IMG/VR virus record: IMGVR_UViG_3300037067_008064
Coordinates: 224,001-288,000 of that record
Source: a virus
Taxonomy: Duplodnaviria; Heunggongvirae; Uroviricota; Caudoviricetes
Strand: one strand, 5' to 3'
Length of the DNA stretch: 64,000 nucleotides
The position numbers were made by a program, and so were the translations under genes. Shown here piece by piece: positions 5,136 through 58,650 of the stretch. The notes under the pieces are model-generated. The model had not been told where the DNA came from and did no database searches. It saw nothing but the letters and a program-made list of their open reading frames with translations. The first letter of the stretch is position 1. Each line of letters starts with the position of its first letter.

Positions 5136-6341
5136 ATGTCAATTATTGATTTGAACCAATTCCATTGGGAAACTTATACAAATGGATATGTTGGTGGAAA
5201 CAAACTAATTAAAAACTCCAAGATTAAAAAAACAAATTTAAAAGATAAAATTTATTCGCATGAAATTTATGCGGACGAATTGTATAAAAAATTCTGCATA
5301 AATGATAATTTTGTTAAAAAAGATGTAGATGTCGGTGATTGTATTCAAGTAACTAACATAGTATTAATGGATAATAAAATATCACTAGAATTAATGGGTG
5401 GATTATTTGTAGATTTTGATTCAACACGTGAAAAGAAATTTATACAACTATTTGGATATGAAACAATAAAAGAATTTGAAGAAGTTTTAAAATCACCAAC
5501 TAGCAGAGAAAATTTTATCAATCAAAAATTTAATGTAATTGTTATTGAATCAACTCCAGTTGTTAGAGTATCTTTATGGCAAGGTTATATAGAATCATTG
5601 AAAAAAGAATTTTTAGATCAAATTAAAAATCCAACTAATGTATACACTGCTAAAATAACCGAAGCTAATAAGGGTGGTTATTTTGCTAATATAAATGGTG
5701 TTGATGCATTTATGCCCGGAGGACAGGCTGCTCCAAATAAGTTACTTGATTTTACTTCTTTAATTGGAAAAGAAGTTAAAGTAATGATTGAAGATTATTT
5801 GCCTGAAAAAAATTCTTTTATTATATCTCACAAAAAATACTTAGAATATATTATTCCAATTAAACTTAAAGAATTAGATACTTCTATAAAATATAAAGGT
5901 ACAATAACAGGTACTTCTAATTATGGTATTTTTATTGAATTCGGAGAAATATTTACTGGATTACTACATACATCTAAAATGTGTCCGACAACTCTTAAAT
6001 TATTTAATGACAGATATTTTAGAGCAGGTATGGAAATAGAATTTTATATAGATGAAATTCAAAAAGATCTTAGAATTATTTTAACTGAACAATCTCCTGA
6101 ATTAAAATTACAAAAGAATTTAGAATTTATACAAAAAAATAAAGATAAAAAAATTGAAGGTAAAATTATTTCAATATTTAATTCAGGCATTCTTATTGTG
6201 TGCGATGAAAACATTGTCGGAATTCTCCCAGGAAAATATTTTAAAAATTATAATATGAAAAAATATAATATAGGAGATACAATTTTAATTATGTTTGAAG
6301 ATTATAAAGATAATCGTTTTAGTTTTAAACCAGGATTTTAA
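5136..6341 (+). CDS. Ribosomal protein S1-like multi-S1-domain RNA-binding protein
   Basis: Tandem S1 repeats: AKITEANKGGYFANINGVDAFMPGGQ, GTITGTSNYGIFIEFGEIFTGLLHTS, GKIISIFNSGILI. Confidence 0.85.
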   Translation: MSIIDLNQFHWETYTNGYVGGNKLIKNSKIKKTNLKDKIYSHEIYADELYKKFCINDNFVKKDVDVGDCIQVTNIVLMDNKISLELMGGLFVDFDSTREKKFIQLFGYETIKEFEEVLKSPTSRENFINQKFNVIVIESTPVVRVSLWQGYIESLKKEFLDQIKNPTNVYTAKITEANKGGYFANINGVDAFMPGGQAAPNKLLDFTSLIGKEVKVMIEDYLPEKNSFIISHKKYLEYIIPIKLKELDTSIKYKGTITGTSNYGIFIEFGEIFTGLLHTSKMCPTTLKLFNDRYFRAGMEIEFYIDEIQKDLRIILTEQSPELKLQKNLEFIQKNKDKKIEGKIISIFNSGILIVCDENIVGILPGKYFKNYNMKKYNIGDTILIMFEDYKDNRFSFKPGF

Positions 6342-8500: not shown

Positions 8501-8501
8501 A

Positions 8502-9236
8502 ATGACAAGAGCAGAATTAATAGATTTAATTATTGCTGAAATTACAGCATCATGTGCATTACCATTTTCTCCTCCAAGAGAAGAAATAGATCGTATTATA
8601 ACCGTTGAATTAAAATGGTTGTATAGAGAATATAGAGATTTACTAGAAGAAAAAATTTATTATTTAGATAAAAAATGGTTTGCAACTACCGAATGGAAAA
8701 ATACCAGAACATTTCAAATGCCTGATTGTGTAGAAGGAATTAAAATAATTTTTGAAATGACTGAAGGTCAAAGAGTATTTGGTATTAATGACCCTGATAT
8801 GAAAATGGATAGATTAATGGCAGCTGATTTATATTTAACACCTTTATCAACAGACCAAATTACTTATAGAACTATACAATGGAGTTTCTGGGATTTAGCT
8901 AAAGGCTATAATTTAAAGGATATACAACATAAATTTAATATTAATACAAAAAGATTATTAATAGAAGGTAGAACACCATCACAATCTTTATTTTTAATAG
9001 CAACAACTAAGATTGAAGAAGAAAAAGCATTTGATGATACATTAGTTATTAGATGGATGACAGCAAAAGCTTTATTATCTTTATCTAGAATACTTGGTAC
9101 TTTTAATTATTCTTTAATTGGTGGTGTTACAATATCATTTGACCAATGGAAATCATATGCAGAAGCAGAATTAACAGAATTAAAAGCTAAAATAGCAAGT
9201 GACAATCCTCCTGATTGGTTTTTATTCTTTGCATAG
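8502..9236 (+). CDS. Neck/head-completion protein (T4 gp13-like)
   Basis: C-terminal LIGGVTISFDQWKSYAEAELTELK...PPDWF resembles the gp13 LPGGV...PP.F pattern. Confidence 0.65.
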   Translation: MTRAELIDLIIAEITASCALPFSPPREEIDRIITVELKWLYREYRDLLEEKIYYLDKKWFATTEWKNTRTFQMPDCVEGIKIIFEMTEGQRVFGINDPDMKMDRLMAADLYLTPLSTDQITYRTIQWSFWDLAKGYNLKDIQHKFNINTKRLLIEGRTPSQSLFLIATTKIEEEKAFDDTLVIRWMTAKALLSLSRILGTFNYSLIGGVTISFDQWKSYAEAELTELKAKIASDNPPDWFLFFA

Positions 9237-9263
9237 TACGATGAATATATAAAATAAAAAGAT

Positions 9264-10166
9264 ATGTCTAAACAATTTAATTACGTATATAAAACAACTA
9301 ATTTAGTTAATGGTAAAGAATATATTGGTGAGCATTCAACTGATAATTTAAATGATAGTTATATTGGTTCAGGATTATTACTTAAAACTGCTATTAAAAA
9401 ATATGGTAAACAAAATTTTAAGAAAGAAATTTTAGAACATTTTGTTTCAAAAGAAGAAGCTTTTAATATACAAAAAAATTATATAGATAAATTTAATACT
9501 TTACAACCTTATGGTTATAATATAAGTCCCACTGGTGGTATGCATGTAATGGGGTGTATACATCACTCAGAAGAAACAAGAAAGAAAATGTCTGCCTCTA
9601 TTAAAGGAAAAACATTGGGAAGAAAACAACCACAAGAAGAAATTGAAAGAAGAAGACAAAGTAATATTGGTAAAAAAAGAACTGAAGAATCCAAATTAAA
9701 TATATCTAATTCATTAAAAGGAATTAAATTTACAGAAAAAAGAAAACAAAATATTTCTAATGTTCATAAAGGAAAAACTTTTTTTGCTAAAAACTTTGGC
9801 CCACCGCGTTTTGGAAAAGATAATCCAGCATATGTAGAAGTAAATTCTAATATTATCAATCAAATTATAGATGTTCATATTAATAAACATTTATCTGCTA
9901 AAGCAATTAAAAAAGAACTAAATTTATTAATAAGCTGGAATAAAGTTTTAAAAATATTAAGAGAAAATAATTCTTATAATCCTAATTATCAATATGTTGA
10001 TTCGCAAATTATAAATAATATAATAGATTTAAGAATTAATAAACAATTATCAGCTAAAGATATTAGATTAAAATTAAATTTATCTATTAATGAAAACAAA
10101 ATATTAAATATTATTAAAGAAAATAATGCTTACAAAAAAATAAATAGATATAATAAAATAAAGTAA
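9264..10166 (+). CDS. GIY-YIG homing endonuclease, NUMOD3 plus duplicated C-terminal HTH-like module
   Basis: YVYKTTNLVNGKEYIG, YIGSG, GYNISP; IIDxxINKxLSAK occurs twice. Confidence 0.88.
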   Translation: MSKQFNYVYKTTNLVNGKEYIGEHSTDNLNDSYIGSGLLLKTAIKKYGKQNFKKEILEHFVSKEEAFNIQKNYIDKFNTLQPYGYNISPTGGMHVMGCIHHSEETRKKMSASIKGKTLGRKQPQEEIERRRQSNIGKKRTEESKLNISNSLKGIKFTEKRKQNISNVHKGKTFFAKNFGPPRFGKDNPAYVEVNSNIINQIIDVHINKHLSAKAIKKELNLLISWNKVLKILRENNSYNPNYQYVDSQIINNIIDLRINKQLSAKDIRLKLNLSINENKILNIIKENNAYKKINRYNKIK

Positions 10167-10169
10167 AAT

Positions 10170-10436
10170 ATGAATACATTATATATGAAAGAGAGTATAC
10201 AATCAGACCCAACCTTTATACAAAAAGTTTTGGATTTTATTAATTACCCATGGCAAGAAGATCTTGAAATCGAGTTTGTTCATTTTGTTTCTGAATATGA
10301 AAATTTAATTAGAACTGCCGATACATCAACTACTAAAAACTATTTAAAACGATTGTATCAACAACTAGAAGATGCAGATAGTTTTCAATTATTGGGTGAT
10401 AAATTTATAGATGATTTAAATGAATTGATAAAATAA
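10170..10436 (+). CDS. Hypothetical protein
   Basis: ORF track; tight operon packing. Confidence 0.6.
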   Translation: MNTLYMKESIQSDPTFIQKVLDFINYPWQEDLEIEFVHFVSEYENLIRTADTSTTKNYLKRLYQQLEDADSFQLLGDKFIDDLNELIK

Positions 10437-10438
10437 AG

Positions 10439-11155
10439 ATGAAAGAACAAATTTCTTATATAGGATATAAAAAAGATTTTTATACAGGAAAAATTACTCA
10501 ATATATTTCTGAATTTTTTCAGAGAAAAGGAAATGATTATCGTGGTGTTGTATACAAATATGGTTATATAAATAAATATCCAAATAAAACCAAAGGATGG
10601 TTTAAACTTAGAACATTATATGGTCAATGGTTAACTGGTTATGAAGATATTATTTGGGAAGAAGGAATAACTAACCTAGACATTAAATCTAAAATAAATG
10701 AAAGTAAAATTAAATTAGTTAAAGAATCTTTAAATGAAGAATTACTCGGAGTTGTAGATCATACTGATACAGAAATTTATAAAAATCCACCATCAATAAA
10801 ACATTTTGAGCACTTTGTTAGAGCCATTAGTGATGATAAAGGAAATTTATTTGTAGCTCATAAAGAATGGGATGTAATACACCCAAATATTTATTATTGG
10901 TTGATAGATAATAAGTTTATGAAAAACTATAGAAGTAGAATTCATGGTGCTGATTGTTGGGATGTAGCATGGGAATATGATAAAATTATATTATGGCAAA
11001 GGATTGGTAAAACAAATAATTTTACATTAGGAGAATCATATAACTTCGATGAAATGGATGATAGTGATTTTAATAAATTAGAATTATTAGCTGATAAAGT
11101 TAGAAAGAAAAATCCTAAATTTAATTTTATTTTAAAATATGATAAAATGTTTTAA
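10439..11155 (+). CDS. Two-module putative head-internal protein; C-terminal half paralogous to 11161..11613
   Basis: Internal linker INESKIKLVKESLNEELLG; shares RAISDDKGN, WQRxGxTN, LGESY, KNPxFNF with the next gene. Confidence 0.7.
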   Translation: MKEQISYIGYKKDFYTGKITQYISEFFQRKGNDYRGVVYKYGYINKYPNKTKGWFKLRTLYGQWLTGYEDIIWEEGITNLDIKSKINESKIKLVKESLNEELLGVVDHTDTEIYKNPPSIKHFEHFVRAISDDKGNLFVAHKEWDVIHPNIYYWLIDNKFMKNYRSRIHGADCWDVAWEYDKIILWQRIGKTNNFTLGESYNFDEMDDSDFNKLELLADKVRKKNPKFNFILKYDKMF

Positions 11156-11160
11156 TCATT

Positions 11161-11613
11161 ATGAGAGCAAAGTTTATTAATGAAGAATTGCTTGGCACAT
11201 TAAAACCAATGTATATGTCGTACAATGAAAATATTAATGTTGAAATATATTTAAATCCACGATCAATTAAAAATATGGAATCTTATACAAGAGCTATTAG
11301 TGATGATAAAGGAAATGTATTTGTTGCTGATACTACATATGCTATTCATATTGATATATATAATTTTTTAATAGATCAAGGTATTTTTTCTGGAAAAAGA
11401 GCTGATGATGAAAGTGTTATGGGATATATGAATTCACATAAATATGTTTGTTGGCAAAGAGAAGGTAATACTAATATTTTTTTATTAGGAGAATCCTATG
11501 GTCAAATAGGTTATCTTAGTAATAGAACAATGGAAGGTATTAGAAAATTAACAGATAAAGTTCAACAAAAAAATCCACAATTTAATTTTAAAATAATAGG
11601 AATACATCAATAA
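11161..11613 (+). CDS. Putative head-internal protein, paralogue of the previous gene's C-terminal module
   Basis: Leader MRAKFINEELLG; shared motifs as above. Confidence 0.7.
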   Translation: MRAKFINEELLGTLKPMYMSYNENINVEIYLNPRSIKNMESYTRAISDDKGNVFVADTTYAIHIDIYNFLIDQGIFSGKRADDESVMGYMNSHKYVCWQREGNTNIFLLGESYGQIGYLSNRTMEGIRKLTDKVQQKNPQFNFKIIGIHQ

Positions 11614-11650
11614 TAAAAAAAATTAATATATAATAAAAATAATAATTAAC

Positions 11651-12154
11651 ATGAGAGCTAGAAAATTAAACGAAGAAATTAATACCAAAGTAAAAAATAT
11701 TGTTAAAGCATCTATAGGTAGAAAAATTATTACAGATGTTAGCAAGATACATGATATGTTATCTGAGCCAGATACAGAATGGATTGATGATTATGTTTTT
11801 CAAGATAACACAGGAAAGGATTGGTCTATTTTTGAATTGGCTGGTCATACTGTTAGAGTTGGAAATGAATCGTCATTTATTGTTGGTGATTGGGTTGAGG
11901 AAGAAGATAATCCATATTCTGATGGAAGTGATGGCTGGGATGAAGATAAATTAGAAGAAGAATTTGGTTTAATGTCTTGGATTAAAGAGGTTGAAAAACT
12001 AAGTTATGAATTACAAAATGCAAGAAGAGGAGCATATGCTTTAAATGGAGATACTTATGGTGATTTAGTTATGTATGTTAAAGATTTATCTGATTCAATT
12101 TCAGATATAGCTGGAAATATGGAAGATGAATCAGGTAATAAAAGAACACATTAA
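11651..12154 (+). CDS. Acidic putative head-internal protein
   Basis: Leader MRARKLNEE. Confidence 0.6.
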   Translation: MRARKLNEEINTKVKNIVKASIGRKIITDVSKIHDMLSEPDTEWIDDYVFQDNTGKDWSIFELAGHTVRVGNESSFIVGDWVEEEDNPYSDGSDGWDEDKLEEEFGLMSWIKEVEKLSYELQNARRGAYALNGDTYGDLVMYVKDLSDSISDIAGNMEDESGNKRTH

Positions 12155-12169
12155 TGAAAATAAAATGTT

Positions 12170-12884
12170 ATGTCTTCAGGTATTATATATAAAATAACTA
12201 ATTTAAAAAATAATAAAATTTATATTGGGAAAACTATTAATTTGGAAGAAAGAATTAAAAAATATAAAAGAGTAGTATTAAATAAAAAAAATTAGTAATC
12301 AATTGATTATTAAAGCTATGAAAAAATATGGGTTTGATAATTTTAAATTTGAAGTTGTTGATAACATTAATTCAAAAAATTTAAACGAAAAAGAAAAATA
12401 TTTTATTCATTTTTATGATAGTAATAATATTTTAGTTGGGTATAATATGACACTGGGAGGTGATGGTGGTGATACAATGAGTAGTCATATTAACAAAAAA
12501 GAAATTTATGAAAAAAGAAAAGAAAATTATAGTGGAAGTAAAGTTATACAATATAGGCATGATTTAGATAAATTTATTATAGAAATGAATTATTTAAATT
12601 CAATTGGGTGGTCTGCTAATGATTTATCTAAAAAATTTAATTGTTCTGCAAAAGCAGTTAAAAATAGAATTATAAATTATAAAAATATTTCAAGTTCAAA
12701 CCATCATTCTAGAAAAAACACTTATCAATATAGACACGATTTAGATGAAAAATTTGATGAAATTTTAAAATTAAAAAATACAGGAATTAAAATAGAAAAA
12801 TTATGTAAAATTTATAATTGTTCTAAATCAACTTTTTATAGAAGATTTAATGAAAATAAAATAATTAATAGCAATGCCAACTAA
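12170..12884 (+). pseudogene. GIY-YIG homing endonuclease with a frameshift in an A8 run
   Basis: ATG 12170 gives MSSGIIYKITNLKNNKIYIGKT, stop at 12293-12295; removing one A at 12284-12291 joins it to ORF 12303..12884 (KAMKKYG, GYNMTLGGDGG). Confidence 0.8.
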
Positions 12885-13230
12885 ATCTGAACAACAAAGA
12901 AAATATATTTTTTCTTTACGAGATAAATATAAAAATAAAACCGATACACCAAAAAAATATAAATATATTTGGGATGAAGGTTATGAAAATAAAGGAAAGC
13001 TTCCAAAGAAAACAAAGAAAAAATTAGTCAAAGAATCTTTAGACGAAGATTGGTATCCTATGGAACAAAATGATTTTGATGTATGGTTTGAAGAAAATAA
13101 AGATTCAGATTCATTACATGAAGATTATGAAGATTATGTTTTTGAATTAGAACAAATGGGGTTAGAAGAAGAAACATTAGAATTTGAAGAATGGGCGCGA
13201 GAAGAAGTATACAATCATTTATTTAAATAA
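12874..13230 (+). CDS. Basic N-terminus/acidic C-terminus protein with KLVKESLDE motif
   Basis: ORF track; motif shared with other putative head-internal proteins. Confidence 0.65.
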   Translation: MPTKSEQQRKYIFSLRDKYKNKTDTPKKYKYIWDEGYENKGKLPKKTKKKLVKESLDEDWYPMEQNDFDVWFEENKDSDSLHEDYEDYVFELEQMGLEEETLEFEEWAREEVYNHLFK

Positions 13231-13263
13231 AAAAAAAGACCGGAAATTTCCGGTCTTTTTTTT
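13229..13263. terminator. Bidirectional intrinsic terminator
   Basis: A-run, GACCGGAAATTTCCGGTC palindrome, T-run, between convergent genes. Confidence 0.9.
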
Positions 13264-13268
13264 ATTTA

Positions 13269-14099
13269 TTAATTTTCATCCCAATTAAGAATTTTTCTAG
13301 TTTTATATTCTGCAGTATAAGTTGGTGGTTGTAATTGTGCTGTAAATCTAACAACACTATTCCAATAATCATTATGTTCTTGATCTGATGTTGGCATTGG
13401 TTTAAAAATCATTTTCCACCCACCTCTTGGTGTAGTTACTGCTAATGGAAAATTACAATCTTGTGATATTTCTACGGTAGTTGTTGGTGTATCGCCCATA
13501 TACCATTTCCACGATCCTTGACATGGCATACCGGGAAATACATAGTCCCCCATTAAAATGAATGTTTCGTGTAATTTTTGAAGATATTCACTTATAGCTG
13601 CTGAATAATCAACATAATCTGGATTTGGGATTTGTTTAGTTGTTGGGTCTCCAACAAGTAACCATTCTTCTACACCAACTAAATTCCACCAAAATTCACT
13701 ATATGGTGCATGTTGAAATTCAATATAACTACTCCCTACTCTAACCTTTCTTATTCTATAAAGAATAGTAGGATCATTTTCTGTAGTTGGTTTATTTACC
13801 GGAAATTTTTTCCAATTACTTATTGTTAAATATTGAGGTACCGCTGGTCCAACATAAGGAAGAGTATCAACGAAGATTTGATTTTTATCTTCACCCCATT
13901 TAGGAGTCATTAATTCTGTAAATGCTGCATTGTTTATTAAAACTACACCATTTTTTACAAACCCTAATTTTTTTGTGGACCCCATTGGTTTATTACCTGT
14001 TAATGGTGTGTTTTTGCCATAATCCACATCATATGTTTCTGTACGACTTAACCCTGCAAATTTTGCAAAGCCAATCCATTTTACTGTTTTAAGTGCCAT
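13269..14099 (-). CDS. Hypothetical protein with its own late-type promoter
   Basis: 276-aa ORF; promoter motif at 14115-14129 on the minus strand. Confidence 0.7.
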   Translation of the reverse strand: MALKTVKWIGFAKFAGLSRTETYDVDYGKNTPLTGNKPMGSTKKLGFVKNGVVLINNAAFTELMTPKWGEDKNQIFVDTLPYVGPAVPQYLTISNWKKFPVNKPTTENDPTILYRIRKVRVGSSYIEFQHAPYSEFWWNLVGVEEWLLVGDPTTKQIPNPDYVDYSAAISEYLQKLHETFILMGDYVFPGMPCQGSWKWYMGDTPTTTVEISQDCNFPLAVTTPRGGWKMIFKPMPTSDQEHNDYWNSVVRFTAQLQPPTYTAEYKTRKILNWDEN

Positions 14100-14214
14100 A
14101 TTTTTATTTTATTATTTTATTTATATATTATATATTAGAATTTTAAAAAGATTTAATTTTTGTAATCGCATGAATGTGTAGAATTTTTAAAAAATATCAA
14201 TTATTCTTTTTAAT

Positions 14215-14232
14215 GAATATATAAAATAAAAA
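14215..14232 (+). promoter_or_regulatory. Phage promoter motif GAATATATAAAATAAAAA (representative of class 1)
   Basis: Similar motif shortly upstream of many starts: 3808, 7095, 9243, 26601, 43356, 44423, 62727 (+); 3751, 14129, 55850, 61057 (-); resembles the T4 late promoter TATAAATA. Confidence 0.7.
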
Positions 14233-14238
14233 TCATCG

Positions 14239-14601
14239 ATGATTAAAGATATTTATATTAGAAATAGAGAAGACCCAAATTATATTTTTGGTATTCTTGA
14301 ACATTCTGATATTATAGAAACAATAATTTCTAAAATAAAGGTATTATTTGGAACCCGCCCCGGGCAAATATTTGGAGATTTAGCATGTGGATTAGGTATT
14401 GAGGATTATGTTTTTGAAACAAGAATTAATTCTATTAAATTAGAAGAAAAGATAACCAATCAAATTAATTCATATATTTCAGAATCTCAAGAATATGCTA
14501 TTACCCCAAAAGTTTCTTTTGGAAAAGCAGACGGTTATGATTATTGTATTATAGATATTTATATAAATGGTAACAAAGTACATGGAGTTTTAGTAAAATA
14601 A
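14239..14601 (+). CDS. Baseplate wedge protein, gp25-like
   Basis: LFGTRPGQIFGDLACGLGIEDYVF; size and position before the gp6-like gene. Confidence 0.75.
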   Translation: MIKDIYIRNREDPNYIFGILEHSDIIETIISKIKVLFGTRPGQIFGDLACGLGIEDYVFETRINSIKLEEKITNQINSYISESQEYAITPKVSFGKADGYDYCIIDIYINGNKVHGVLVK

Positions 14602-14609
14602 AAATTAAA

Positions 14610-16544
14610 ATGGAATTATTTAATACGGCACGTATTCGTTTTTTTGAATTATATAATGATGCAATTAGTTTTGTGTCACAAACATATACTAATTTAGGAA
14701 AACAATTTACAATGGCATCTCCTATGGGCCAATTATTACAAGTTATTCTTGGATTAGGAAGAATGATTATGTATTATATTGAAGATTCTATTACAGAACT
14801 CAATATTAATAAAGCATCTAGACCAGCAAGCATAAGAGGATTATCGGGATTAACAGGACATAATCCTTCAAGAGCAATGTCCGCGCGCGGTACACTTAAA
14901 ATAAGTTATAAACCAGGTTCATCATTAGATAGCACCATTGGTAACACTGTAATTATTCCTAAATATACTAGATTAATAAGTACACTTAATGGGTTAACTT
15001 ATACTATAATTTTACCGGGTGAAGAAGCAAGAATACAATTGAACAGCCCCACTAATTTTTTAAATGTTAATGTTGTACAAGGAGTATTAGAATATCAACA
15101 AGCAACTGGAACCGGTGATGCACTTCAATCTTTTAATTTTCAATCAAAAAAAGGAGCAAGTATAGATAACTTTTTTGTGAATATCTATGTTGATGGTAAA
15201 TTATGGTCAACATATGATTCAATAATGGATATGGTATTTAATGAACCTGGATGTATTATTAAAACAGGACAAACGGGTGGTGTTGATGTATTTTTTGGTA
15301 ATGGATATAATGGAAAAATACCTGTAAATGGTTCTATCATTATGTTAGAATATTTAATAACAGATGGAGATACTGGAAATATTAATACTAATGATGCAAA
15401 TATTATAAATAATTGGAAATTTATTACTAGTGGTTACACATTAAATGGAGAGCAAGTTGACTTAAATAAAATATTAAATGTTACAATACAAAGAGATATT
15501 TTATTTGGAACTGCAGATGAACCACTTTATTTAACAAGATTATTAACACCAAATGCTTCAAGGAGTTTTGTATTAGCAAATACAAATAATTATATTTATT
15601 TTTTAAGAAAACTTAATATATTTTCTATTATAGATGCTATACCTGGGTTTGATACTTTTAATGATAAATATTATTTAAATAAATATGTTATTGAAAAAAC
15701 TAAATTGGAACAATTAAATGAACAACTTTTAAAAACAAGAACGCAAACAGGAAATAATACAGAACAAATTGGTTTATTAGTAATAGCAATCAATGAACAA
15801 TCAATAGTTGTAAAAGGAATTGAAGCTATATTACAAGAACAAAAGAAAGATGATAATACGGTTTATTTATTTTTGGTTCCTGATATAAGTAAGCGTGTTA
15901 CTTCAGATGAAAATTATTATACTTGTAATATTAATACATTTAAATTATCTGATAATGAAAAACAAGCTATATTAGATTTAATTGAAGAAAGTGGTCAACG
16001 TGTTCTAACTGTTGACAATGCAATATTAGATATTTATTACCCAAGGTTTTCTATTAATATGTCATTAGTTGTTTATGAAGGATTTAACATAGATAATATC
16101 AAAGAAGATATTATTTCAAAAACCTCAGATTATTTTATTAAAAATACAAGAAGAGATAGAATTCCTAAATCTGATTTAATTAAAATTGTTGAAAATATAG
16201 AAGGAGTTGATTCTGTTAATATTTGGTTTGATGCTTCAAATTTAAATAAAAATATATATGGAGATTATAAATCTTATAACTTAATGGGTGTTGATAGAAA
16301 ATATGGATTAGATAAATATGGTGATATAATATTAGAAAGAATTGTATTAGATGCATTTAATAATGAAGTTGTTATAAGAGATATTTATCCTTTAATAAGA
16401 GGAGGGTTTGTTAATAAAAACGGTAAAAGATATAATGATTCAGTTTCTTCAACAGAAGTTGGTTCTATTAATATAGAAGTAAGAGCTACATCTAAAGTTG
16501 ATATTAATTCACTTAATAATATTGCAATTGTAAAATCAATATAA
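14610..16544 (+). CDS. Baseplate wedge protein, gp6/J-like
   Basis: ASRPASIRGLSGLTGHNP, VFFGNGYNGKIP, IEGVDSV; synteny. Confidence 0.75.
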   Translation: MELFNTARIRFFELYNDAISFVSQTYTNLGKQFTMASPMGQLLQVILGLGRMIMYYIEDSITELNINKASRPASIRGLSGLTGHNPSRAMSARGTLKISYKPGSSLDSTIGNTVIIPKYTRLISTLNGLTYTIILPGEEARIQLNSPTNFLNVNVVQGVLEYQQATGTGDALQSFNFQSKKGASIDNFFVNIYVDGKLWSTYDSIMDMVFNEPGCIIKTGQTGGVDVFFGNGYNGKIPVNGSIIMLEYLITDGDTGNINTNDANIINNWKFITSGYTLNGEQVDLNKILNVTIQRDILFGTADEPLYLTRLLTPNASRSFVLANTNNYIYFLRKLNIFSIIDAIPGFDTFNDKYYLNKYVIEKTKLEQLNEQLLKTRTQTGNNTEQIGLLVIAINEQSIVVKGIEAILQEQKKDDNTVYLFLVPDISKRVTSDENYYTCNINTFKLSDNEKQAILDLIEESGQRVLTVDNAILDIYYPRFSINMSLVVYEGFNIDNIKEDIISKTSDYFIKNTRRDRIPKSDLIKIVENIEGVDSVNIWFDASNLNKNIYGDYKSYNLMGVDRKYGLDKYGDIILERIVLDAFNNEVVIRDIYPLIRGGFVNKNGKRYNDSVSSTEVGSINIEVRATSKVDINSLNNIAIVKSI

Positions 16545-16547
16545 CAT

Positions 16548-16817
16548 ATGCCATTAAATAATTCAAAAAGATATACTATTAGAGCTTCTTATAATTATAG
16601 AGGGAAACATATTAATGATAATTTTTTAAACTTGGGTTATAATTATAAAGGAAACATTCTTAAAAAAATGACATCACCAGAATTATGGTCTAATCCTTTG
16701 CAAATTCCAATGTATAAACAATTAGAATCAATGATAACTTATCTTTTAGAATATGTAAAAGAAATAAAAAAGAGCTATTCAATTGCTCATGATAAAAATA
16801 CTACTCGTATAAATTAA
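16548..16817 (+). CDS. Small baseplate-region protein
   Basis: ORF track; operon context. Confidence 0.55.
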
Positions 16818-16821
16818 TAAT

Positions 16822-17466
16822 ATGAAACAGTTTCACTACACATATAAAACAACTAACTTAATTAATAATAAACAATATGTTGGGGATCATTCAACTAATA
16901 ATTTAGATGATGGATATTTAGGAAGTGGTTGTTTATTAATTAAAGCTATTAAAAAATATGGTAAACAAAATTTTAAGAAAGAAATACTAGAACAATTTAA
17001 TACAAGAATTGAAGCTTCAAAAACCCAGATTAAATATATAAATGAACTCAATACAATTTATCCTAATGGTTATAATTTAAGTCCTACTGGTGGAACTGAT
17101 ACGCTTCCTTTTGGAGAACAATCAGAAGAAACAAAAAGAAAGATAAGTAAAAAAAACAAAGGTAAATTAAAAACAGAAGAAACTAAAAGAAAAATAAGTG
17201 AATCTAAAAAAGGAAGTAATCCTTGGAATAAAGGAATAACTTTATCAGAAGAACATAAAAGAAAATTAAGTGAATCGCATAAAGGAAAATTGTGTTCTAG
17301 TGAAACAAAAGAAAAAATGAGTATTTATAGAAAAGGAAGACCTCTTTCTGATGAACACAAAATTAATATAAGTAAGGCTCGAAAAGGAGAAAATAATCCA
17401 ATGTATGGAAAAATACCCTGGAACAAAGGATTAAAATATAGTAAAATATTTAAATATAATAAATGA
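16822..17466 (+). CDS. GIY-YIG homing endonuclease with NUMOD3 repeats
   Basis: [40 protein letters not shown]; close paralogue of 6325..6969. Confidence 0.9.
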
Positions 17467-20400
17467 ACTTTCAAAACTGGAAAATATTTGATAAACAAGG
17501 AAATAATTTAAACTGGTATTCAATTGAATTTCTGCCATTAAAATTTAATAGTTTAATAGGCACAAATGCAGATGGTTATTTAATAACAGATACCAGTACA
17601 CATATAGTAGATTCTATTATAACTAATAAAGGGTGGGGGTATGATAATAATACAACTGTCTTTTATTCTAATTTAACAACATCACCAGATTTTATTTCTT
17701 TATCATCTAGTGAAGTAAGTATTTTTTATGAACCCGTTCAAATATTTAACCCCGATGCTTCAACATCACAAGGAATTAGTTATTTAAATACTAATATATC
17801 AGGAGATTTTCTATATCCATCAACTAAATATAGTGGAACAATATTTATGAAACCTATTTCACAGGGATTAGTTGAAACTGAAACGTTATATATAATTGAA
17901 GAATCACTTGGTCAACTTATTAGACCTTATGATGCTAGCAATTATACTATTGTTTTAAGAATGGATGGTGATGATAATGAAATAGCTTTTTTTGAAGTAG
18001 ATGAATATGAAGATGAAATAAGCTGGTCAGATTCTATTGTAATAGATGATTTAAATACTTTAGTTAGTAATGACCCTCTTATTATAAACATTGGATTTAG
18101 AGCTGATAATGAAGGTGTATTTGAAAGAAGATTAAAAATGTATCATAAGGTAGGTGATATAGAATATTTGTTTGCTGAAATTATAATTAATGCAGAATCA
18201 ATCGGACAAGATGAAAGATTTAGAACATTATTAACTAATTTTGGTTTGCCTGACCCTATTAATTTTCCTAGTTTATTCAAAGAAGCTAATATTAAAGAAG
18301 GTTTACCTGATTGGAAATTGATAAATAATAAATCCAAGTTAATGATATTAGAACATGCTAACATTATACCTTTTATTGGAACATATAAAGGTTTAATAAA
18401 CGCAATCAAATGGCTTGGATATGAAGATATTTATGTAAAAGAATGGTATAATAATTTAAAAACTGGTAAAAAAGATGCTTTATATATTTCATATGATGCC
18501 AAAGATAGATCAAAAACTCTATTAATGATACCATTAGAAAATAGAAAATATTTAAAGAAAACAAATGCACTATCATTATGTTATTGTATAACAAAAGAAA
18601 CAGGTGAACTCGATGATTGGGGAACTCCTCTTACAGAAAATTGTTATACATATTCAATTAATGAAATACTTATAAAGTTAATGGCTTTAAAAGATTGGTT
18701 AGAACGTTATATCATTGGAGTTAACTGTAGAATTGTAGATATTTCAGGCGAAGGAGTTTATTTTGAACGTTTTAGAAATTTAATTTATGCAACTAATAAT
18801 ATTGGTAATTTAGTTAATTATGAAATTCCATTAAGTGCAAACACAATATATGATAAAACTGAATTACTTAATGGTGAAGCAAGCATTTATTCAACAATAA
18901 AAGAATTAACTAACATTACAGCAAATGATTTGTTTTATCATCGTGCTATTGATTTTATTGATTATGTATGGGACCCAAGTAATGGTGTAAGAACTGCGGA
19001 TCCTTCATTTTTAGAAGACCCAAGTGTAATACGTGTTGGTGGAACCGCTCGTTTTCCTATTCCATTTTTACAAGAAATACAATGGAAACATTCTTTAAAT
19101 AAACCAAATGCCGTTATTCCAATAGAATTAGTTTCAAATCAATTACTTGTTTATGATAATGATTTAAGATTTAATAATATATTAGATGTAAGTTCATTAT
19201 TTTATGATACATCAACTAACCTTATTATTCTTTTAGAAAATGCAACATTAAGAGACCCAAACAATGATGTGTGGATTGATTCAATAGATTTTTCTATTTA
19301 CATTGACCCTTCATATAACGGAGCTTATTGGCTAGAAAGTTCATTGGGTGTTAAAAAAGAATTTAGTGGATATGTAATGTTGAGACGTGATACCAATTTT
19401 AAATTAGAATATGCTTATGATGATAATTATAAAGTTCCATTATTAAGTATACAAAATTTTAAATATACTGATGTAAGCGGGAACACAATAGTTGTAAGTA
19501 AAAGATATTTTTTAGATATTATTGATGGTAAAATAGTAATGAATGCTAATAATGGACAAACATATAAACTAAATTTTAATTATGATACAAGTTTAAGTGA
19601 ACAAATGATTTCGCTTGATGTTGAATATTTATCTCCAAGAGAATTATTATATTTGTATGATCCATCAGTTTATTATTTTGGTGGTGCAAATGACCCAAGC
19701 GTTTTAATAGTAGATAATAGTATATATAAATCTACAGTATATGATATTGGAAATTATAATGTTGAACTATATGCTTTTGACGGTTATAATAATATTTATT
19801 ATTCAAAAGATAGAGACTTATTTAATGTTTGGATTAAATATCCAACTATTTATGCCTATATAGATGTGTCATGTAATAACACATGTTCAAGTACTTATAT
19901 GCTAATGAATGATGTAAGCATATTAATTAGTCAAAACAAATACCCATTGTTCGATAGAATAATTCCATTACAAGGTTTAACCATAGAAATAAATGAATTT
20001 GGAAATCCTTTTGTTGTTGTGCCTAGTTTATCGTATTTTGTTGATTTGCCAGAATTATATACATATAACAGATTTTGGAATTTAACCGAGCGTTGCACTA
20101 GTATTAATTCTACATATGTTACAATTGATAAAGACTTTGAAGATTTTATAGTTGGAGATGAAGTTAATTTAGTTAAATTTAATAGAGAACATTATTATTT
20201 TGTATTACAAGCTAGTACTTATATTACTGATGTAAGTAATAATAAACTAACATTGGATAACATATTATCTGATTTTATATTAACAGATAATAAATTTGAA
20301 ATATATCTTCAGAATATTACTGAACGTGGTGTTGAAAATATTATAAATCATAATACAACAATTGAAGTTGATATAAGTAGTTATACATTTAGAGAAACAC

Positions 20401-39179: not shown

Positions 39180-39584
39180 ATGAATAAAATTTATTTCGCA
39201 CACCCTATTAATACGTATAATACAGAATTAGAAAAACACTGTATTAATTTAATAGAAAAGAAATTTCCTGACTGTATTATAATTAATCCAAATAGTGAAG
39301 ATAGAATAAAATTATTTGTTGAGTATAAACAAAATAATCCAGATACTTATATGGATTTCTTTACAACAATAGTAAAAGAATGTACTCACTTAGTCTTATT
39401 ACCATTTAGAGATGGAATGATAGGTGCAGGTATTTGGTTAGAAGCTCATGCATTACAAGATATAAATAATATTTTTGAGATCAATCCGTTTAAAACTAAT
39501 ATAAGATTTATTGAATTAGCTGAAATTGATTTCATGAAATTATCTATAGAGGAAACACGAAGAAGAATTCAAAGAGAATATTAA
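39180..39584 (+). CDS. Nucleoside 2-deoxyribosyltransferase / nucleotide N-glycosidase-like protein
   Basis: IYFAHP, INP, GAGIWLE. Confidence 0.55.
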   Translation: MNKIYFAHPINTYNTELEKHCINLIEKKFPDCIIINPNSEDRIKLFVEYKQNNPDTYMDFFTTIVKECTHLVLLPFRDGMIGAGIWLEAHALQDINNIFEINPFKTNIRFIELAEIDFMKLSIEETRRRIQREY

Positions 39585-39822: not shown

Positions 39823-40335
39823 ATGAAAGCTTATACTAAAAATAGGTGTAATGAAGAAAATGATTATGAAAGATTAGCACATCAATTATCTGTATTAAAT
39901 CAGATAAAAGAATGGGTAATTTTATCTGGTGGTTGGGCATGGCATTTTATGTCTCCTCCACATAAAGAATATAAACATCTCCATGATCATAAAGACATTG
40001 ATATTTTTGTAGAGCCTAATAATATTAATAAAGTTATTTTAAAATTAAAAGAACTTGGCTTTAACAGAATAAAAACTAAATACGATAATAATACATTTAT
40101 TCGTTATGAGAATATTATAAATGACAGAAAAATTGTAATTGATATGTTCTTTAAGGAAGTGCCTAGTATTATTTGTAATGAGTGGAAGGTAGTTGAACCA
40201 AGTTATTTATTATCGTTATATGATTCTATTCATCAAACAAAACATTGTGTGGCTGTAATAGAATCTAATAAATTAATTAAAAAAGGAATTGACCCCTGTA
40301 ATAAAAAAGAATTAATCAATTTATCTATATTATAA
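39823..40335 (+). CDS. Pol-beta-superfamily nucleotidyltransferase (ANT(2'')/Lnu-like)
   Basis: LSGGWAW, HKDIDIFV, VIDMF. Confidence 0.7.
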   Translation: MKAYTKNRCNEENDYERLAHQLSVLNQIKEWVILSGGWAWHFMSPPHKEYKHLHDHKDIDIFVEPNNINKVILKLKELGFNRIKTKYDNNTFIRYENIINDRKIVIDMFFKEVPSIICNEWKVVEPSYLLSLYDSIHQTKHCVAVIESNKLIKKGIDPCNKKELINLSIL

Positions 40336-40345
40336 AATTAAAAGA

Positions 40346-40693
40346 ATGTGTTTTACTATTAATGACAGGTTATGTGCAAAACCTTTAATTGCACAGGAAG
40401 ATATTATTTGTTATAAAGACATACAAGATACTATGTCATCCGAATATAATAAATTTATCTATAAGTTTAACAAAGTATATAGAATTTGGTTTTGGAAATT
40501 AAAGATTATGCAAGACCAAAAGAAAGAGCATGACACTCGTGGTATTTACCGTGGTTTTCATTCTTGGAAAGTACGTGGTAATCAAAGATGGAATTTAATT
40601 AAAGTACAATGCATCATACCTAAAGGTGCACGATATTATTTTAGTGAAACCCAATATGTAAGTAACAGAATTATAATCAAAGAAAAAGTTTAA
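40346..40693 (+). CDS. MCF-family paralogue 1 (candidate mini-ART fold)
   Basis: EDIICYK, GFHSW, CIIPKGARY, QYVS. Confidence 0.75.
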   Translation: MCFTINDRLCAKPLIAQEDIICYKDIQDTMSSEYNKFIYKFNKVYRIWFWKLKIMQDQKKEHDTRGIYRGFHSWKVRGNQRWNLIKVQCIIPKGARYYFSETQYVSNRIIIKEKV

Positions 40694-40697
40694 AGCT

Positions 40698-41063
40698 ATG
40701 TGTTTTGTAGTTGAATACACCCACCCCGAATCTTTTATAGCTAAAGAAGATATTACATGCTATAAAGTAGTAAATTATCGTGAAGAAAAAATAGTATCTG
40801 AATATAAGAAATTTGTCTATGATATAGATAAACTCTATAAATTAGATGAGCCATTAAAAGAAATTAATGGTCAAATAGAAAAAGGATTTCATTCTTATAC
40901 TAAATTAAGAATAGCAGTTGGTGATAAAACCGACTATCAAATAGTTATTAAGTGTATCATACCTAAAGGGTCTGTATATTTTATCAGTGATTACTATGAA
41001 GAGTATGTTGCTGATGCTATTATCATTAAAGAAATTTTAGTAAACAAAACTGAAGAAGAATAA
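40698..41063 (+). CDS. MCF-family paralogue 2
   Basis: EDITCYK, GFHSYTKL, CIIPKGSVY, EEYV. Confidence 0.8.
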   Translation: MCFVVEYTHPESFIAKEDITCYKVVNYREEKIVSEYKKFVYDIDKLYKLDEPLKEINGQIEKGFHSYTKLRIAVGDKTDYQIVIKCIIPKGSVYFISDYYEEYVADAIIIKEILVNKTEEE

Positions 41064-41064
41064 T

Positions 41065-41457
41065 ATGTGTTTTATAGTAGATGAAAAAAATCCATATAAA
41101 TTAATAGCAGAAGAAGATAGAGTATGCTATAAAGTTTTAAGAAATGATATAGGCAAAATGGTGTCTCCCTTTAAGAACTTTGAATATCAACTTAATGAAT
41201 TAAATATATTAAGTGAACCATTAAGAATTACACACGCTGAATTTGATAATATAATTGCTGTTGGTTTTCATTCTTATACTAAACTAAGAGAAGCTGTATT
41301 AAATAGTCATCATGAAAGTCTTATAGTAAAATGCATAATACCTAAAGGCGCTGAATTTTTCATAGATAATTACTATGAAGAATATGTAAGCAACCAAATT
41401 ATAATTAAAGAAGTGCTTACTCAAGTAAATAGAACAAAATCACTTAAAGAATATTAA
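41065..41457 (+). CDS. MCF-family paralogue 3
   Basis: EDRVCYK, GFHSYTKL, CIIPKGAEF, EEYVS. Confidence 0.8.
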   Translation: MCFIVDEKNPYKLIAEEDRVCYKVLRNDIGKMVSPFKNFEYQLNELNILSEPLRITHAEFDNIIAVGFHSYTKLREAVLNSHHESLIVKCIIPKGAEFFIDNYYEEYVSNQIIIKEVLTQVNRTKSLKEY

Positions 41458-41466
41458 AATAATATT

Positions 41467-41838
41467 ATGTGTTTCATTATAGATAAAAAGAATCCTGAAT
41501 CTAAAATAGCAGATAAAGATATTACATGTTATAAGATTATGTGAAACCAAGAAGATATGATAGTATCGGTTGTACAGCTTTTCACATATAAATTTAATGA
41601 ATTATATAAGATTAAATTCTGGAAACCAAGAACATCTTTATATAGAAATAGTTGTTTAAGATCAATTAATCTTGGATTTCATTCTTATACAAAATTAAAT
41701 GAAGCAGAGAAACATACAGCTCCCAGCTTTGATATTGTTAAATGTATAATACCAAAGGGTGCACGATATTATGTGAATGATGATTATAATCAATATGTAA
41801 GTAACCAAATAATAATAAAAGAAATATGTGTTTTTTAG
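41467..41838 (+). pseudogene. MCF-family paralogue 4 with in-frame TGA at 41542-41544
   Basis: ATG 41467 gives MCFIIDKKNPESKIADKDITCYKIM*NQED, in frame with ORF 41557..41838. Confidence 0.8.
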
Positions 41839-42191
41839 TAGATACTAACAACCCAAATGTTCTTATAGCAGCAGAAGATATTAGTTGTTATAAAGTAGTA
41901 AGTCAAAATAAGAAAAAAGAATTAATATCAGAATACAGATATTTTTTATATCATATCGATACTTTATATAAATTAGATAAGCCTTTAAAAATACGTGTTT
42001 GTAGTATAGAAGAAGGGTATCATTCTTTTACTAAACTGCGTGCAGTAAAAGATAATAAACGTGATGATCAAATTATAATTAAATGTATAATACCACAAGG
42101 TTCAGAATATTTTTTAAGTAATGAATATGAAGAATATGTAAGTACTGCTTTAATAGTTAAAGAAATTTTAATAAACAAAAATAAAGAATAA
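41826..42191 (+). CDS. MCF-family paralogue 5
   Basis: EDISCYK, GYHSFTKL, CIIPQGSEY, EEYVS. Confidence 0.8.
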   Translation: MCFLVDTNNPNVLIAAEDISCYKVVSQNKKKELISEYRYFLYHIDTLYKLDKPLKIRVCSIEEGYHSFTKLRAVKDNKRDDQIIIKCIIPQGSEYFLSNEYEEYVSTALIVKEILINKNKE

Positions 42192-42192
42192 T

Positions 42193-42561
42193 ATGTGTTT
42201 TGTAATAGATGATGATCGCCCAGATGAAATTATAGCAATAGAAGATATTGTATGTTATAAGTTTATGGATTACTATGATAATGTTTTAAGGTCTCCATAT
42301 AGAGATTATAAATATGAATTTAATCAAGAATATATTTTAAATGATTATTTACGAAATGAATACGAAAGAATAAATGAAGGCTATCACTCATATACTAAAT
42401 TAAGAGTGTGCAAAGATGAAGCTAATATAAAACATACTATTGTTAGATGTATTATACCAAAAGGCTCTCGTTATTACATTAATAATTTTGATAATCAATA
42501 TGTAAGTGATCATATTATAATAAAAGAAATTATAAGAAATAAAGATATTCAATATCAATAA
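42193..42561 (+). CDS. MCF-family paralogue 6
   Basis: EDIVCYK, GYHSYTKL, CIIPKGSRY, NQYVS. Confidence 0.8.
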   Translation: MCFVIDDDRPDEIIAIEDIVCYKFMDYYDNVLRSPYRDYKYEFNQEYILNDYLRNEYERINEGYHSYTKLRVCKDEANIKHTIVRCIIPKGSRYYINNFDNQYVSDHIIIKEIIRNKDIQYQ

Positions 42562-42571
42562 AATAAAAGAT

Positions 42572-42943
42572 ATGTGTTTTGCATTAGATGAAAATCACCA
42601 TAACGTTCTTATAGCTAATAAAGATATAGTATGCTATAAATTTTTAGATGTAGATGGAGATAGAATAGTATCTCCATATAGAAAATTTATATATAATTTT
42701 AATGAAACCTATTCTACTTATCATTCATTAAAAGTAATAAATGATAATGTACACGAAGGCTATCATTCATATACCAAATTAAAAATAGTTGTTAGGCAAG
42801 CTTGCAATAGAAACATAATCGTTAGATGTATTATACCCAAAGGGTCTGAATATTATATTAATGACTATGACGAAGAATATGTGAGCAATAATATTATCAT
42901 AAAAGAAATTGTTAATCCCGATGAAATAATATGTCTGTACTAG
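42572..42943 (+). CDS. MCF-family paralogue 7
   Basis: KDIVCYK, GYHSYTKL, CIIPKGSEY, EEYVS. Confidence 0.8.
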   Translation: MCFALDENHHNVLIANKDIVCYKFLDVDGDRIVSPYRKFIYNFNETYSTYHSLKVINDNVHEGYHSYTKLKIVVRQACNRNIIVRCIIPKGSEYYINDYDEEYVSNNIIIKEIVNPDEIICLY

Positions 42944-43300: not shown

Positions 43301-43344
43301 TTCGTGAATTAAAAATAAATTCCCCGCGACAAAACTCCCGCGGG
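43301..43344 (+). repeat. Hairpin element copy 1: TTCGTGAAT-N16-GCGACAAAACTCCCGC
   Basis: Matches 43860-43902 with identical spacing. Confidence 0.7.
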
Positions 43345-43386
43345 ACTGGAATGAAGAATATATAAATAAAAATAACAATATGAAAG

Positions 43387-43827
43387 ATGATCCGTCTAGA
43401 GAAGTTTGCATTAAAAACTACCAAATGGATTGGCTCAATAGAGTCATTAATCATCCATACTGTTTTATTTATAATATCTTTACTCCTATATCTATTTGGA
43501 GCTGACTTTACAAGAGTACTTTTAGTATTAACTACTATAGTTTCTCTTGAAGCTATCTATCTAAGTATCTTTATTCAAATGTCTGTCAATCACCAATCCA
43601 AAGCACTTGAAAATGTAACTGAAGATGTAGGTGAAATATCTAATAATGTTGAAGGTATTGTTGAAGACGTAGGTGAACTACAAAAAGATGTAGATGAATT
43701 ACAAGAATCTATTAATGACGATGAAGAAGACAGTGAAGATAAATCTATTAAGAAGATAGAAGATGTAGTTGAATCTTTATTAAAAGAAATAAAAAACTTT
43801 GAAACAAAGCTCAAAGCCAAAAAGTAA
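43387..43827 (+). CDS. DUF1003-like membrane protein with acidic coiled coil
   Basis: WIGSIESLIIHT...LTTIVSLEAIYLSIFIQMSVN; EDVGE heptad repeats. Confidence 0.7.
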   Translation: MIRLEKFALKTTKWIGSIESLIIHTVLFIISLLLYLFGADFTRVLLVLTTIVSLEAIYLSIFIQMSVNHQSKALENVTEDVGEISNNVEGIVEDVGELQKDVDELQESINDDEEDSEDKSIKKIEDVVESLLKEIKNFETKLKAKK

Positions 43828-43859: not shown

Positions 43860-43902
43860 TTCGTGAATAATTTAAGAATGCTCTGCGACGAAAGTCCCGC
43901 AG
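43860..43902 (+). repeat. Hairpin element copy 2: TTCGTGAAT-N16-GCGACGAAAGTCCCGC
   Basis: CTGC-GAC-GAAA-GTC-cc-GCAG stem with a GNRA loop. Confidence 0.7.
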
Positions 43903-58005: not shown

Positions 58006-58650
58006 TTATTGTTGCCCTAATCCAAGTATAGGTTGTCCTGTTCTTCCAGGATTTTGAGGATTATTAGGATCTGATAATTTATCTATTTCTTCTTTTCTTT
58101 GAATATCTATATTGCTATGTTGTATTTCACTTTCTTCAACTTCTGGTGTATTATTGAAATTCATACGTTGTTCCCAATAATCTTTTCCGTAGTCTATTGT
58201 AAGTTCTTCATTTTTTTGTATACTTTTTTTTGCAATGAAATGCATTTGCCTTGTTGATTTATTATAAGCAAAATCTAAATTAGGTGTTTGTGAGTGTTTA
58301 TATAAAGTTCCATAACCTAAAACAACACCATACATTTTTTGTCCTTTATCAATTTCAAATACTTTATCTTTTAGTGTTTCAATTGAAATTGCACTATCAT
58401 TTAACATAATGATTGGGCAAATTTCTACAATGTCACCTTTATAAAAATTACCATTAGCTTTAACAGTATAATCTCCATTATCTGTCTTAGTCCAATGTAT
58501 TTGTGATGGTGAAAAATTATCTTTTTTTAAAGCCAAAGCATCAGATTTATCTGATAAATGAATTGGTTCTTTAGATATACTATCATTTTCTTCAAATGGA
58601 TTGTAAAAATCTTCTTCTAATTTTGGTATTTTTATTTTGTTTTTAATCAT
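58006..58650 (-). CDS. SET-domain protein
   Basis: KGDIVEICP, GYGTLYKHSQTPN, FIAKKSIQKNEELTIDYG..YW. Confidence 0.85.
   Translation of the reverse strand: MIKNKIKIPKLEEDFYNPFEENDSISKEPIHLSDKSDALALKKDNFSPSQIHWTKTDNGDYTVKANGNFYKGDIVEICPIIMLNDSAISIETLKDKVFEIDKGQKMYGVVLGYGTLYKHSQTPNLDFAYNKSTRQMHFIAKKSIQKNEELTIDYGKDYWEQRMNFNNTPEVEESEIQHSNIDIQRKEEIDKLSDPNNPQNPGRTGQPILGLGQQ

Follow-up and report, generated by a model that had tools for sequence, protein, structure and literature searches.

A recurrent tandem family of small jumbo-phage proteins with a predicted minimal ADP-ribosyltransferase fold and a lysine-histidine signature

A seven-gene array and its family

Positions 40346–42943 of a 64,000-nucleotide stretch of virus DNA (positions 224,001 to 288,000 of the IMG/VR record IMGVR_UViG_3300037067_008064, Caudoviricetes; hereafter the window) contain seven head-to-tail reading frames on the plus strand, all of which start with MCF and whose products are 39–56% identical in pairwise comparison. 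This window comes from a jumbo-phage record of 316,176 bases with 26% G+C and 31 tRNA genes, which is 78% complete according to CheckV and was found in groundwater and landfill runs; among the datasets listed as carrying it, none is an RNA dataset. A preliminary description of this DNA had presented the genes as a tandem array of seven paralogues resembling minimal ADP-ribosyltransferases (ARTs), with elements in the order known from the R-S-E clade. Here we describe the array, the phage family phrog_13450 to which it belongs, the predicted fold of these proteins and the functions that they might have. The genes are as follows, with letters for the residues at the three candidate active-site positions, on strands 1, 2 and 5:

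40346..40693, plus strand: copy 1, phrog_13450 protein of 115 amino acids, K-H-Q
40698..41063, plus strand: copy 2, phrog_13450 protein of 121 amino acids, K-H-E
41065..41457, plus strand: copy 3, phrog_13450 protein of 130 amino acids, K-H-E
41467..41838, plus strand: copy 4, broken by an in-frame TGA at 41542–41544; K-H-Q if read through with X
41826..42191, plus strand: copy 5, phrog_13450 protein of 121 amino acids, K-H-E
42193..42561, plus strand: copy 6, phrog_13450 protein of 122 amino acids, K-H-Q
42572..42943, plus strand: copy 7, 123 amino acids, K-H-E; the copy used for the structure model

All seven copies match the phrog_13450 profile over most of the protein, with E-values of 9e-10 to 9e-14, and the likeness within the array is therefore not due to chance. 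The common MCF start had been recognized correctly in the preliminary description, as had the residue before YVS, which is E in copies 2, 3, 5 and 7 and Q in copies 1, 4 and 6; the shared motifs that it listed are present as well, with small exceptions (GFHSWKV in copy 1, EYVAD in copy 2). What it overlooked is that copy 4 is broken. Codon 26 of this gene is the in-frame TGA, three codons past the invariant lysine, and the sole long open reading frame (ORF) of the remnant (41557–41838, 93 amino acids) lacks strand 1 and its lysine. The stop is spanned unchanged by contigs from four of four runs (three studies; two of the runs are possibly the source of the record), so that an assembly error is not supported, and an alternative genetic code is ruled out, as TGA terminates 20 of the 245 ORFs of at least 150 amino acids and the single tryptophan tRNA found reads CCA. 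Since the TGA is unchanged in all four runs and is a normal stop in this genome, six copies are intact, and one of the three Q copies that had been put forward as functional variants is the broken gene.

Conserved core segments are 61–71% identical among the seven copies, and four loops 14–27%. A FastTree phylogeny (248 sequences, 106 columns) does not recover the copies as monophyletic: the smallest clade that includes all of them comprises 44 leaves (support 0.67), five of the copies group with three outside proteins, and copies 1 and 4 are placed elsewhere with low support. Because the copies share no single clade and their DNA is about 60–80% alike where segments correspond, recent amplification or a DNA repeat mechanism is ruled out. 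We regard the array as old and perhaps of mixed origin. Pfam, NCBIfam and PADLOC hold no family near cut-off for the seven copies (PADLOC matched none of 11 proteins), and neither PHROGs, Pfam nor NCBIfam gives a name, fold or function for phrog_13450. A promoter scan remained at chance level (46 versus 47 ± 8), and no Macro or ribosomal S21 match was found in the genome, as far as the 78% complete record goes.

A profile built from 16 sequences retrieves 9,835 cluster representatives (50% identity) at E ≤ 0.001 and 5,007 at E ≤ 1e-10. Family genes were located at 61 loci in a scan of viral contigs and at six in a scan of prokaryote genomes, all six in metagenome-assembled records. For 41 of the 61 records the whole record was searched (most short contigs and evident duplicates were excluded and split hits merged; some records are near-identical); 20 of these carry at least two family genes and 14 at least four, with tandem expansion to 7–10 copies. 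The tandem array is a recurrent habit of the family and not special to this genome. The cultured Xanthomonas phage XacN1 has five tandem family genes (BBA65582-86, L094:5952-8459), phage Xoo-sp13 has three clear and two weak ones in tandem (L065:5582-7849), and IAS virus has one. The functionally unassigned phrog_13450 includes ORF434 and ORF437 of XacN1 and is matched, besides the seven copies, by three other close paralogues of the present genome, at G000 7873-10899, outside the window.

The same genome also encodes four distant paralogues with the pattern MC...GYK...GKT (G000 16140-18497, minus strand), which share their N-terminal part with the family (hhalign 82%, E 1e-5) and in which GKT replaces GFH, so that the histidine is missing. 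They match no PHROG or Pfam family, and the Atlas model of one of them resembles a DUF2441 cluster (TM 0.51) and part of a Gad2-bearing protein (TM 0.55), both below the bar for naming. At locus L039 a gene of the distant type stands directly behind a typical family member. An Atlas lead to PF26820 (Phage_T4_Y00F; scores 0.86–0.87, below the bar) was dropped, no ORF in the 1–16 kb region of T4 having matched the family profiles.

Orthologue pairs from related phages have a median ratio of nonsynonymous to synonymous substitution rates (dN/dS) of 0.36 (28 pairs, many of them duplicates), with a range of 0.17–0.59 in the 14 rows with dS > 0.1, whereas the value is 0.14 in a set of 214 other pairs and 0.10 in 104 pairs taken from the same loci. 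The family genes are thus kept by purifying selection and change faster than their neighbours.

Several further observations concern the family. Members of about 190–210 amino acids at loci L031, L038, L043, L014 and L017, often in tandem, have an insertion of about 80–90 residues right after the strand-1 lysine. The arrays of XacN1 and Xoo-sp13 lie near a gene for a CCA-adding enzyme; part of the Xoo-sp13 array is unannotated, and a PARP gene is found about 4 kb past it. A second phage in the same runs seemingly carries a related gene followed by another family gene, and a loose contig end of this phage matches the start of the second gene of locus L002, part of a three-gene array (L002:6001-7207).

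Predicted fold and active-site residues

An AlphaFold2 model of copy 7, computed from 148 sequences, has a pLDDT of 95.3 and a pTM of 0.87. DSSP assigns strands to residues 19–28, 64–67, 81–88, 93–97, 102–105 and 107–113, with a helix after strand 2, and the predicted strand order is that of the ART core as defined in section 3.3.1 of PMC9503650. The model thereby predicts the six-strand split-sheet core that had been named as a check on the proposed fold. A VIA-align comparison with 48,161 solved chains yielded 93 matches at Z ≥ 2, four of them at Z ≥ 5; 49 of the best 50 of the 93 were recognized as ART-fold proteins, and the remaining one, a cyanophage ejectosome chain, was not placed. The best match is BC2332 (2AUA; Z 6.7, root-mean-square deviation 3.2, 85 residues aligned), followed by Arr (6.2, 5.0, 85), 9ld3 (5.7, 3.8, 85) and TreX (5.4, 4.0, 92), and further by diphtheria toxin (4.9), TreTu (4.7) and Tne2 (4.6), with Runella Tpt1 and CC0527 lower than Arr and 9ld3. 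We take BC2332, 9ld3 and CNFy to be ART-fold proteins, 9ld3 being presumably a Tpt1. A second structure comparison agrees, with VIP2, C3, iota toxin and C2-I at Z 2.3–3.2. The case is built on the uniform list of matches and on the strand order rather than on a single strong Z, and on these grounds the proteins of the family very probably have the ART fold, an assignment first suggested in the preliminary description and now borne out by a confident model and two structure comparisons.

The family resembles the minimal ARTs (BC2332, Arr, the C-terminal domain of Tpt1/KptA, the Rhs toxins TreX and TreTu and the NADase Tne2) in the predicted size of its six-strand core, with Z-values of 4.6–6.7 and 8–11% identity. 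It differs from them in having lysine for the strand-1 histidine, a strand-2 histidine, a variable third residue and an invariant N-terminal cysteine, and no immunity or antitoxin partner was seen beside the family genes.

Residues were counted in 248 sequences, a sample biased towards near relatives. The most conserved are C2 (245), K23 (246), G63 (236), H65 (244), S66 (214), P89 (248), Y/F94 (248) and S105 (237), and the near-invariant polar residues K23, H65 and S105 sit on the three active-site strands. By secondary structure and conservation, K23 is placed on strand 1, H65 on strand 2 and position 102 on strand 5; this last position is E in 169 sequences, S in 23, D in 11 and Q in 8, and G and N also occur. 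The strand-2 motif is G-[FYLI]-H-[STA]-[YF], that is, hydrophobic, histidine, small, aromatic, with position 68 variable in the register that we adopt. The preliminary description had named Ser66 as the second member of a K-S-E triad. The invariant His65 more likely faces the cleft than Ser66, and because of this the triad is read as K-H-x; we infer that this signature, rather than K-S-E, characterizes the family.

Section 3.7.1 of PMC9503650 divides ARTs into the clades H-H-h, H-Y-[EDQ] and R-S-E. The strand-1 arginine of the R-S-E clade is absent from the family (lysine in 246 of 248, arginine in none), and the invariant glutamate of that clade at the start of strand 5 has a counterpart in four of the seven copies. 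In place of the histidine and tyrosine of the H-Y-[EDQ] clade (diphtheria toxin, PARP, Arr) there are lysine and histidine, with tyrosine at position 65 in two of the 248 sequences. Compared with the H-H-h clade (Tpt1/KptA, CC0527), the family has Lys23 where the strand-1 histidine would be, and the strand-2 histidine probably corresponds to His65, on strand 64–67. The K-H-x signature thus appears to fit none of the three clades. Active ARTs that lack the canonical glutamate are described in PMC8120803, namely Arr (H-Y-D), AcrIF11 and Tpt1 (H-H-h), and the missing invariant glutamate therefore does not exclude activity.

Structural relatives and genomic context

When the model of copy 7 was compared with predicted viral structures, unnamed proteins were matched with a TM of up to 0.82, and DUF7666 proteins, giant-virus ankyrin and DUF4116 proteins, a pentapeptide protein and RIIB proteins with a TM of about 0.5–0.65 (RIIB 0.56–0.61, E 0.009–0.026). 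In phage T4 the RIIB domain concerned is the following:

L064:2969-3292, minus strand: C-terminal domain of T4 RIIB, residues 205–312, with a K...G-h-H signature

This domain has K, GLH and K in the same strand order as the family, and its residues K215, H257 and K295 are invariant in all 13 aligned sequences. A model built from 13 viral-contig sequences (pLDDT 84) matches the solved structures of BC2332 (6.6), Arr (6.1), TreX (5.5), TreTu (5.1), 9ld3 (5.0) and AcrIF11 (4.0) and has 21 of its top 50 viral-model matches in common with copy 7; the domain's predicted fold, like that of the family, is a minimal ART-like one. As no sequence or profile-profile link from the family to RIIB was found, their kinship rests on predicted folds and the order of motifs. 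T4 RIIB is unlike the family in its invariant strand-5 lysine, its long N-terminal part and its joint action with RIIA. RIIB is reported to counter RexAB, by a mechanism described as unclear, and to trigger a gasdermin defence, and T6 RIIB is reported to have been toxic to E. coli (10.1101/2023.05.28.542683); another study reports that T2 RIIB was not toxic and that residue 219 decides the activation of Tmn (10.64898/2026.03.01.708804). This residue lies four positions past the strand-1 lysine, within the stretch where the seven copies vary most. In PMC7824862 RIIB is treated as a transcription factor.

The likeness of the family to DUF7666 (PF24703), to the giant-virus ankyrin and DUF4116 proteins and to the phage pentapeptide domain is one of predicted folds. 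Weak Pfam matches to DUF7666 occur in 7 of 106 family members (best E 0.0046); no protein of this genome exceeds the curated cut-off of 27 bits, and the seven copies give no hit at all. DUF7666-type domains are mostly fused to repeats, whereas phrog_13450 proteins stand alone, and our literature search found no paper on the function of DUF7666. It is conceivable, though we consider it rather unlikely, that phrog_13450 and DUF7666, together with the RIIB C-terminal domain and the domain at the N-terminus of repeat proteins in giant viruses, form one so far unrecognized, virus-wide Lys-His clade of NAD+-using ARTs. Jumbo phages would then keep batteries aimed at distinct host targets, and it would be through its ART domain that RIIB defeats Rex exclusion and sets off the gasdermin and Tmn defences. 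A separate T4 gene, motB.2 (L093:7661-8161, minus strand), encodes the sequence IYRVE...FAF...QVMF, which looks ART-like.

Outside the window, at G000 7873-14333, a cluster of NAD-salvage genes (NadE, a PncA-like gene and NAPRTase (PncB), with NADAR and PTH2) is interleaved with the three close paralogues, the nearest of which lies 10 bp from the NAPRTase gene, and adjoins 20 tRNA genes; the four distant paralogues are also placed around NAD-salvage genes. Of the 41 records, 16 contain genes of the NAPRTase family. No NAD-salvage genes adjoin the array in the window, and the proximity is a lead only. Two genes lie upstream of the array:

39180..39584, plus strand: gene of 134 amino acids, labelled NDT-like in the preliminary description; no match in four libraries
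39823..40335, plus strand: weak nucleotidyltransferase-like gene in the same gene run; no evidence of a functional link

The first label finds no support in Pfam, PHROGs, NCBIfam or PADLOC. The second, also given in the preliminary description, survives in weakened form, with NTP_transf_5 at E 0.011 and Lnu-type nucleotidyltransferase models at a best E of 1.6e-8, far below cut-off. Elsewhere the window encodes a TnpB-like (OrfB_IS605) protein (3834-5033), a phage protein with S1 RNA-binding domains that resembles ribosomal protein S1 (5136-6338) and a SET-domain protein (58009-58650, minus strand; PF00856, E 7e-11), and a gene with a cytidylyltransferase fold is found at G000 288528-288884. 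An imperfect 41-nt repeat (43301-43341 and 43860-43900) flanks a membrane-protein gene (43387-43827), its first copy overlapping a G+C-rich hairpin (43322-43345). Many similar ORFs resembling GIY-YIG/NUMOD3 homing endonucleases are spread across the genome (window 6328, 9264, 16822, 54987 and 62900) and occur in L001.

Possible functions

The reading that we favour, with somewhat less than even confidence, is that these small proteins bind NAD+ through their predicted minimal ART fold and ADP-ribosylate host macromolecules, aiding takeover or countering defence. Lys23 on strand 1 would occupy the position of the histidine or arginine of other ARTs, His65 on strand 2 that of the tyrosine, serine or histidine, and residue 102 (E, Q, S or D), with which strand 5 begins, the third position, and the small enzymes would carry out NAD+-dependent mono-ADP-ribosylation of host macromolecules. 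The four variable loops would choose the target; duplication followed by loop change would yield several enzymes, each suited to its own target or host strain, and genes would be born and die as the array turns over, copy 4 being an example. The idea of a battery with different targets fits the combination of conserved core and variable loops. Since RIIB residue 219 falls within the part of the protein in which the seven copies differ most, loop change may also provide escape from host sensors as well as new targets. That the structurally related RIIB is an anti-defence protein speaks for this reading. According to PMC13716836 T4 Alt acts against defence systems, and according to PMC9503650 there are jumbo phages with many ARTs, ten or more. 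The family resembles Alt, ModA and ModB (R-S-E) and AcrIF11 in the proposed role of phage ADP-ribosylation for takeover or anti-defence and differs from them in its triad, its smaller size and its tandem expansion to 7–10 copies, its own activity being a prediction.

A number of points weigh against ADP-ribosylation of host macromolecules by these proteins. A Foldseek search of the PDB gave no match at E ≤ 0.001, with Arr, Tse2 and C3 among the weak rows; individual Z-values are middling (best 6.7), and Z < 8 can mean merely a common arrangement. No sequence or profile link to any characterized ART was found, nor any sequence match to a solved structure below E 0.1. Among the structural matches are ART folds that we take to be catalytically dead (PARP13, SRO1/RCD1, CNFy). 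The residue roles are assigned from secondary structure and conservation, not from coordinates. The glutamate read as catalytic in the preliminary description is kept in only the 169 sequences mentioned above and in 39% of a more diverse alignment (A2), so that conservation does not extend to the third position; the histidine is missing from the four distant paralogues, and the invariant Cys2 (245 of 248) is unexplained by ART chemistry. None of the 28 orthologue pairs has a dN/dS above 1. No conserved neighbour or partner gene was found across the family, and the closeness of NAPRTase to family genes (Fisher P 0.035, 10 lineages) falls to P 0.20 without the two discovery lineages; a general linkage of the family to NAD salvage is not upheld outside these.

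Alternatively, the proteins may be non-catalytic binders, whose K-H cleft would hold NAD+, ADP-ribose or a cyclic nucleotide signal as a sponge, or which would inhibit host defence proteins or serve as decoys for them; dose or a range of ligands would then be the benefit of having several copies. The variable third triad position and the distant paralogues without histidine are in keeping with binding, as is the fact that the genes are small, stand alone and sit in variable regions without a constant partner, and there are precedents in T4, where gene amplification boosts the dose of a binding inhibitor (PMC9391042), and in the direct binding of RIIB to a host sensor (10.64898/2026.03.01.708804). 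Yet the copies are old and diverged (39–56% identical and not one clade), which is ill-suited to simple dosage, several active ARTs lack the glutamate, and the fold is also found at the head of repeat proteins of the ankyrin, DUF4116 and pentapeptide kinds, a layout suggestive of an enzyme plus targeting; we regard binding as an unlikely but serious alternative. Enzymes that use NAD+ on small molecules or RNA ends (in the manner of Arr, Tpt1/KptA or CC0527), or NADases, could disable signals or antiviral compounds, or clean up phosphates on RNA. Arr and 9ld3 are among the best matches, with Runella Tpt1, CC0527 and Tne2 lower; a strand-2 histidine marks the H-H-h clade, whose substrates are RNA ends and small molecules (section 3.7.1 of PMC9503650); and in this genome, XacN1 and Xoo-sp13 the neighbours of paralogues are tRNA clusters, PTH2, NADAR or a CCA-adding enzyme. 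The model lacks a Tpt1-like N-terminal domain, however, up to ten diverging copies would suit varied macromolecular targets better than one metabolite, and NADases are under-represented in viruses according to section 3.7.4 of PMC9503650, so that this kind of activity seems improbable.

The conservation of Cys2, in 245 of 248 sequences and in 12 of 12 of the distant subfamily, together with the frequent Cys21 and Cys86, might point to a reuse of the fold for chemistry centred on the N-terminal Cys2 and His65, as a nucleophile after removal of methionine, in self-modification or as a metal site. However, the internal repeats of a four-domain relative (P0017) have no Met-Cys start, the RIIB domain likewise, and Cys2 may merely anchor the N-terminal arm in the core; we consider such chemistry very improbable. 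Membership in the R-S-E clade with a K-S-E triad (VIP2, C3, Alt or Mod-like), as proposed in the preliminary description, is hardly credible. VIP2, C3 and iota toxin do appear in the structure lists, E precedes YVS in four of the seven copies, and IPKGS before strand 4 presumably resembles the VPKG of VIP2-type proteins. But there is no arginine on strand 1, His65 is better conserved than Ser66, and position 68 is variable, so that an S-T-S motif is probably lacking; these toxins score Z 2.3–3.2 (VIP2 and C3 2.3–3.1), well below the minimal ARTs, and no VIP2- or Mod-type profile is matched.

Viral ARTs are already known (PMC9503650, sections 3.3.1, 3.7.1 and 3.7.4; PMC7824862), as are gene arrays in jumbo phages (PMC13282480). 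No assignment of phrog_13450, DUF7666 or RIIB to the ART fold was found in the literature searched, mainly non-subscription, and the supplements of PMC7824862 and PMC9503650 may list these proteins. For RIIB, the predicted fold makes the question of how RexAB is defeated testable and names three residues, and a virus-wide Lys-His clade, if real, would supply a biochemical mechanism for the classic rII locus. Should the phrog_13450 proteins prove to be inactive binders, they would still constitute a new class of candidate anti-defence proteins, one that has been amplified repeatedly. If they are active, they would be among the largest unannotated families of phage enzymes, with 9,835 clusters at 50% identity, and would add a fourth type of ART active site beside H-H-h, H-Y-E and R-S-E.

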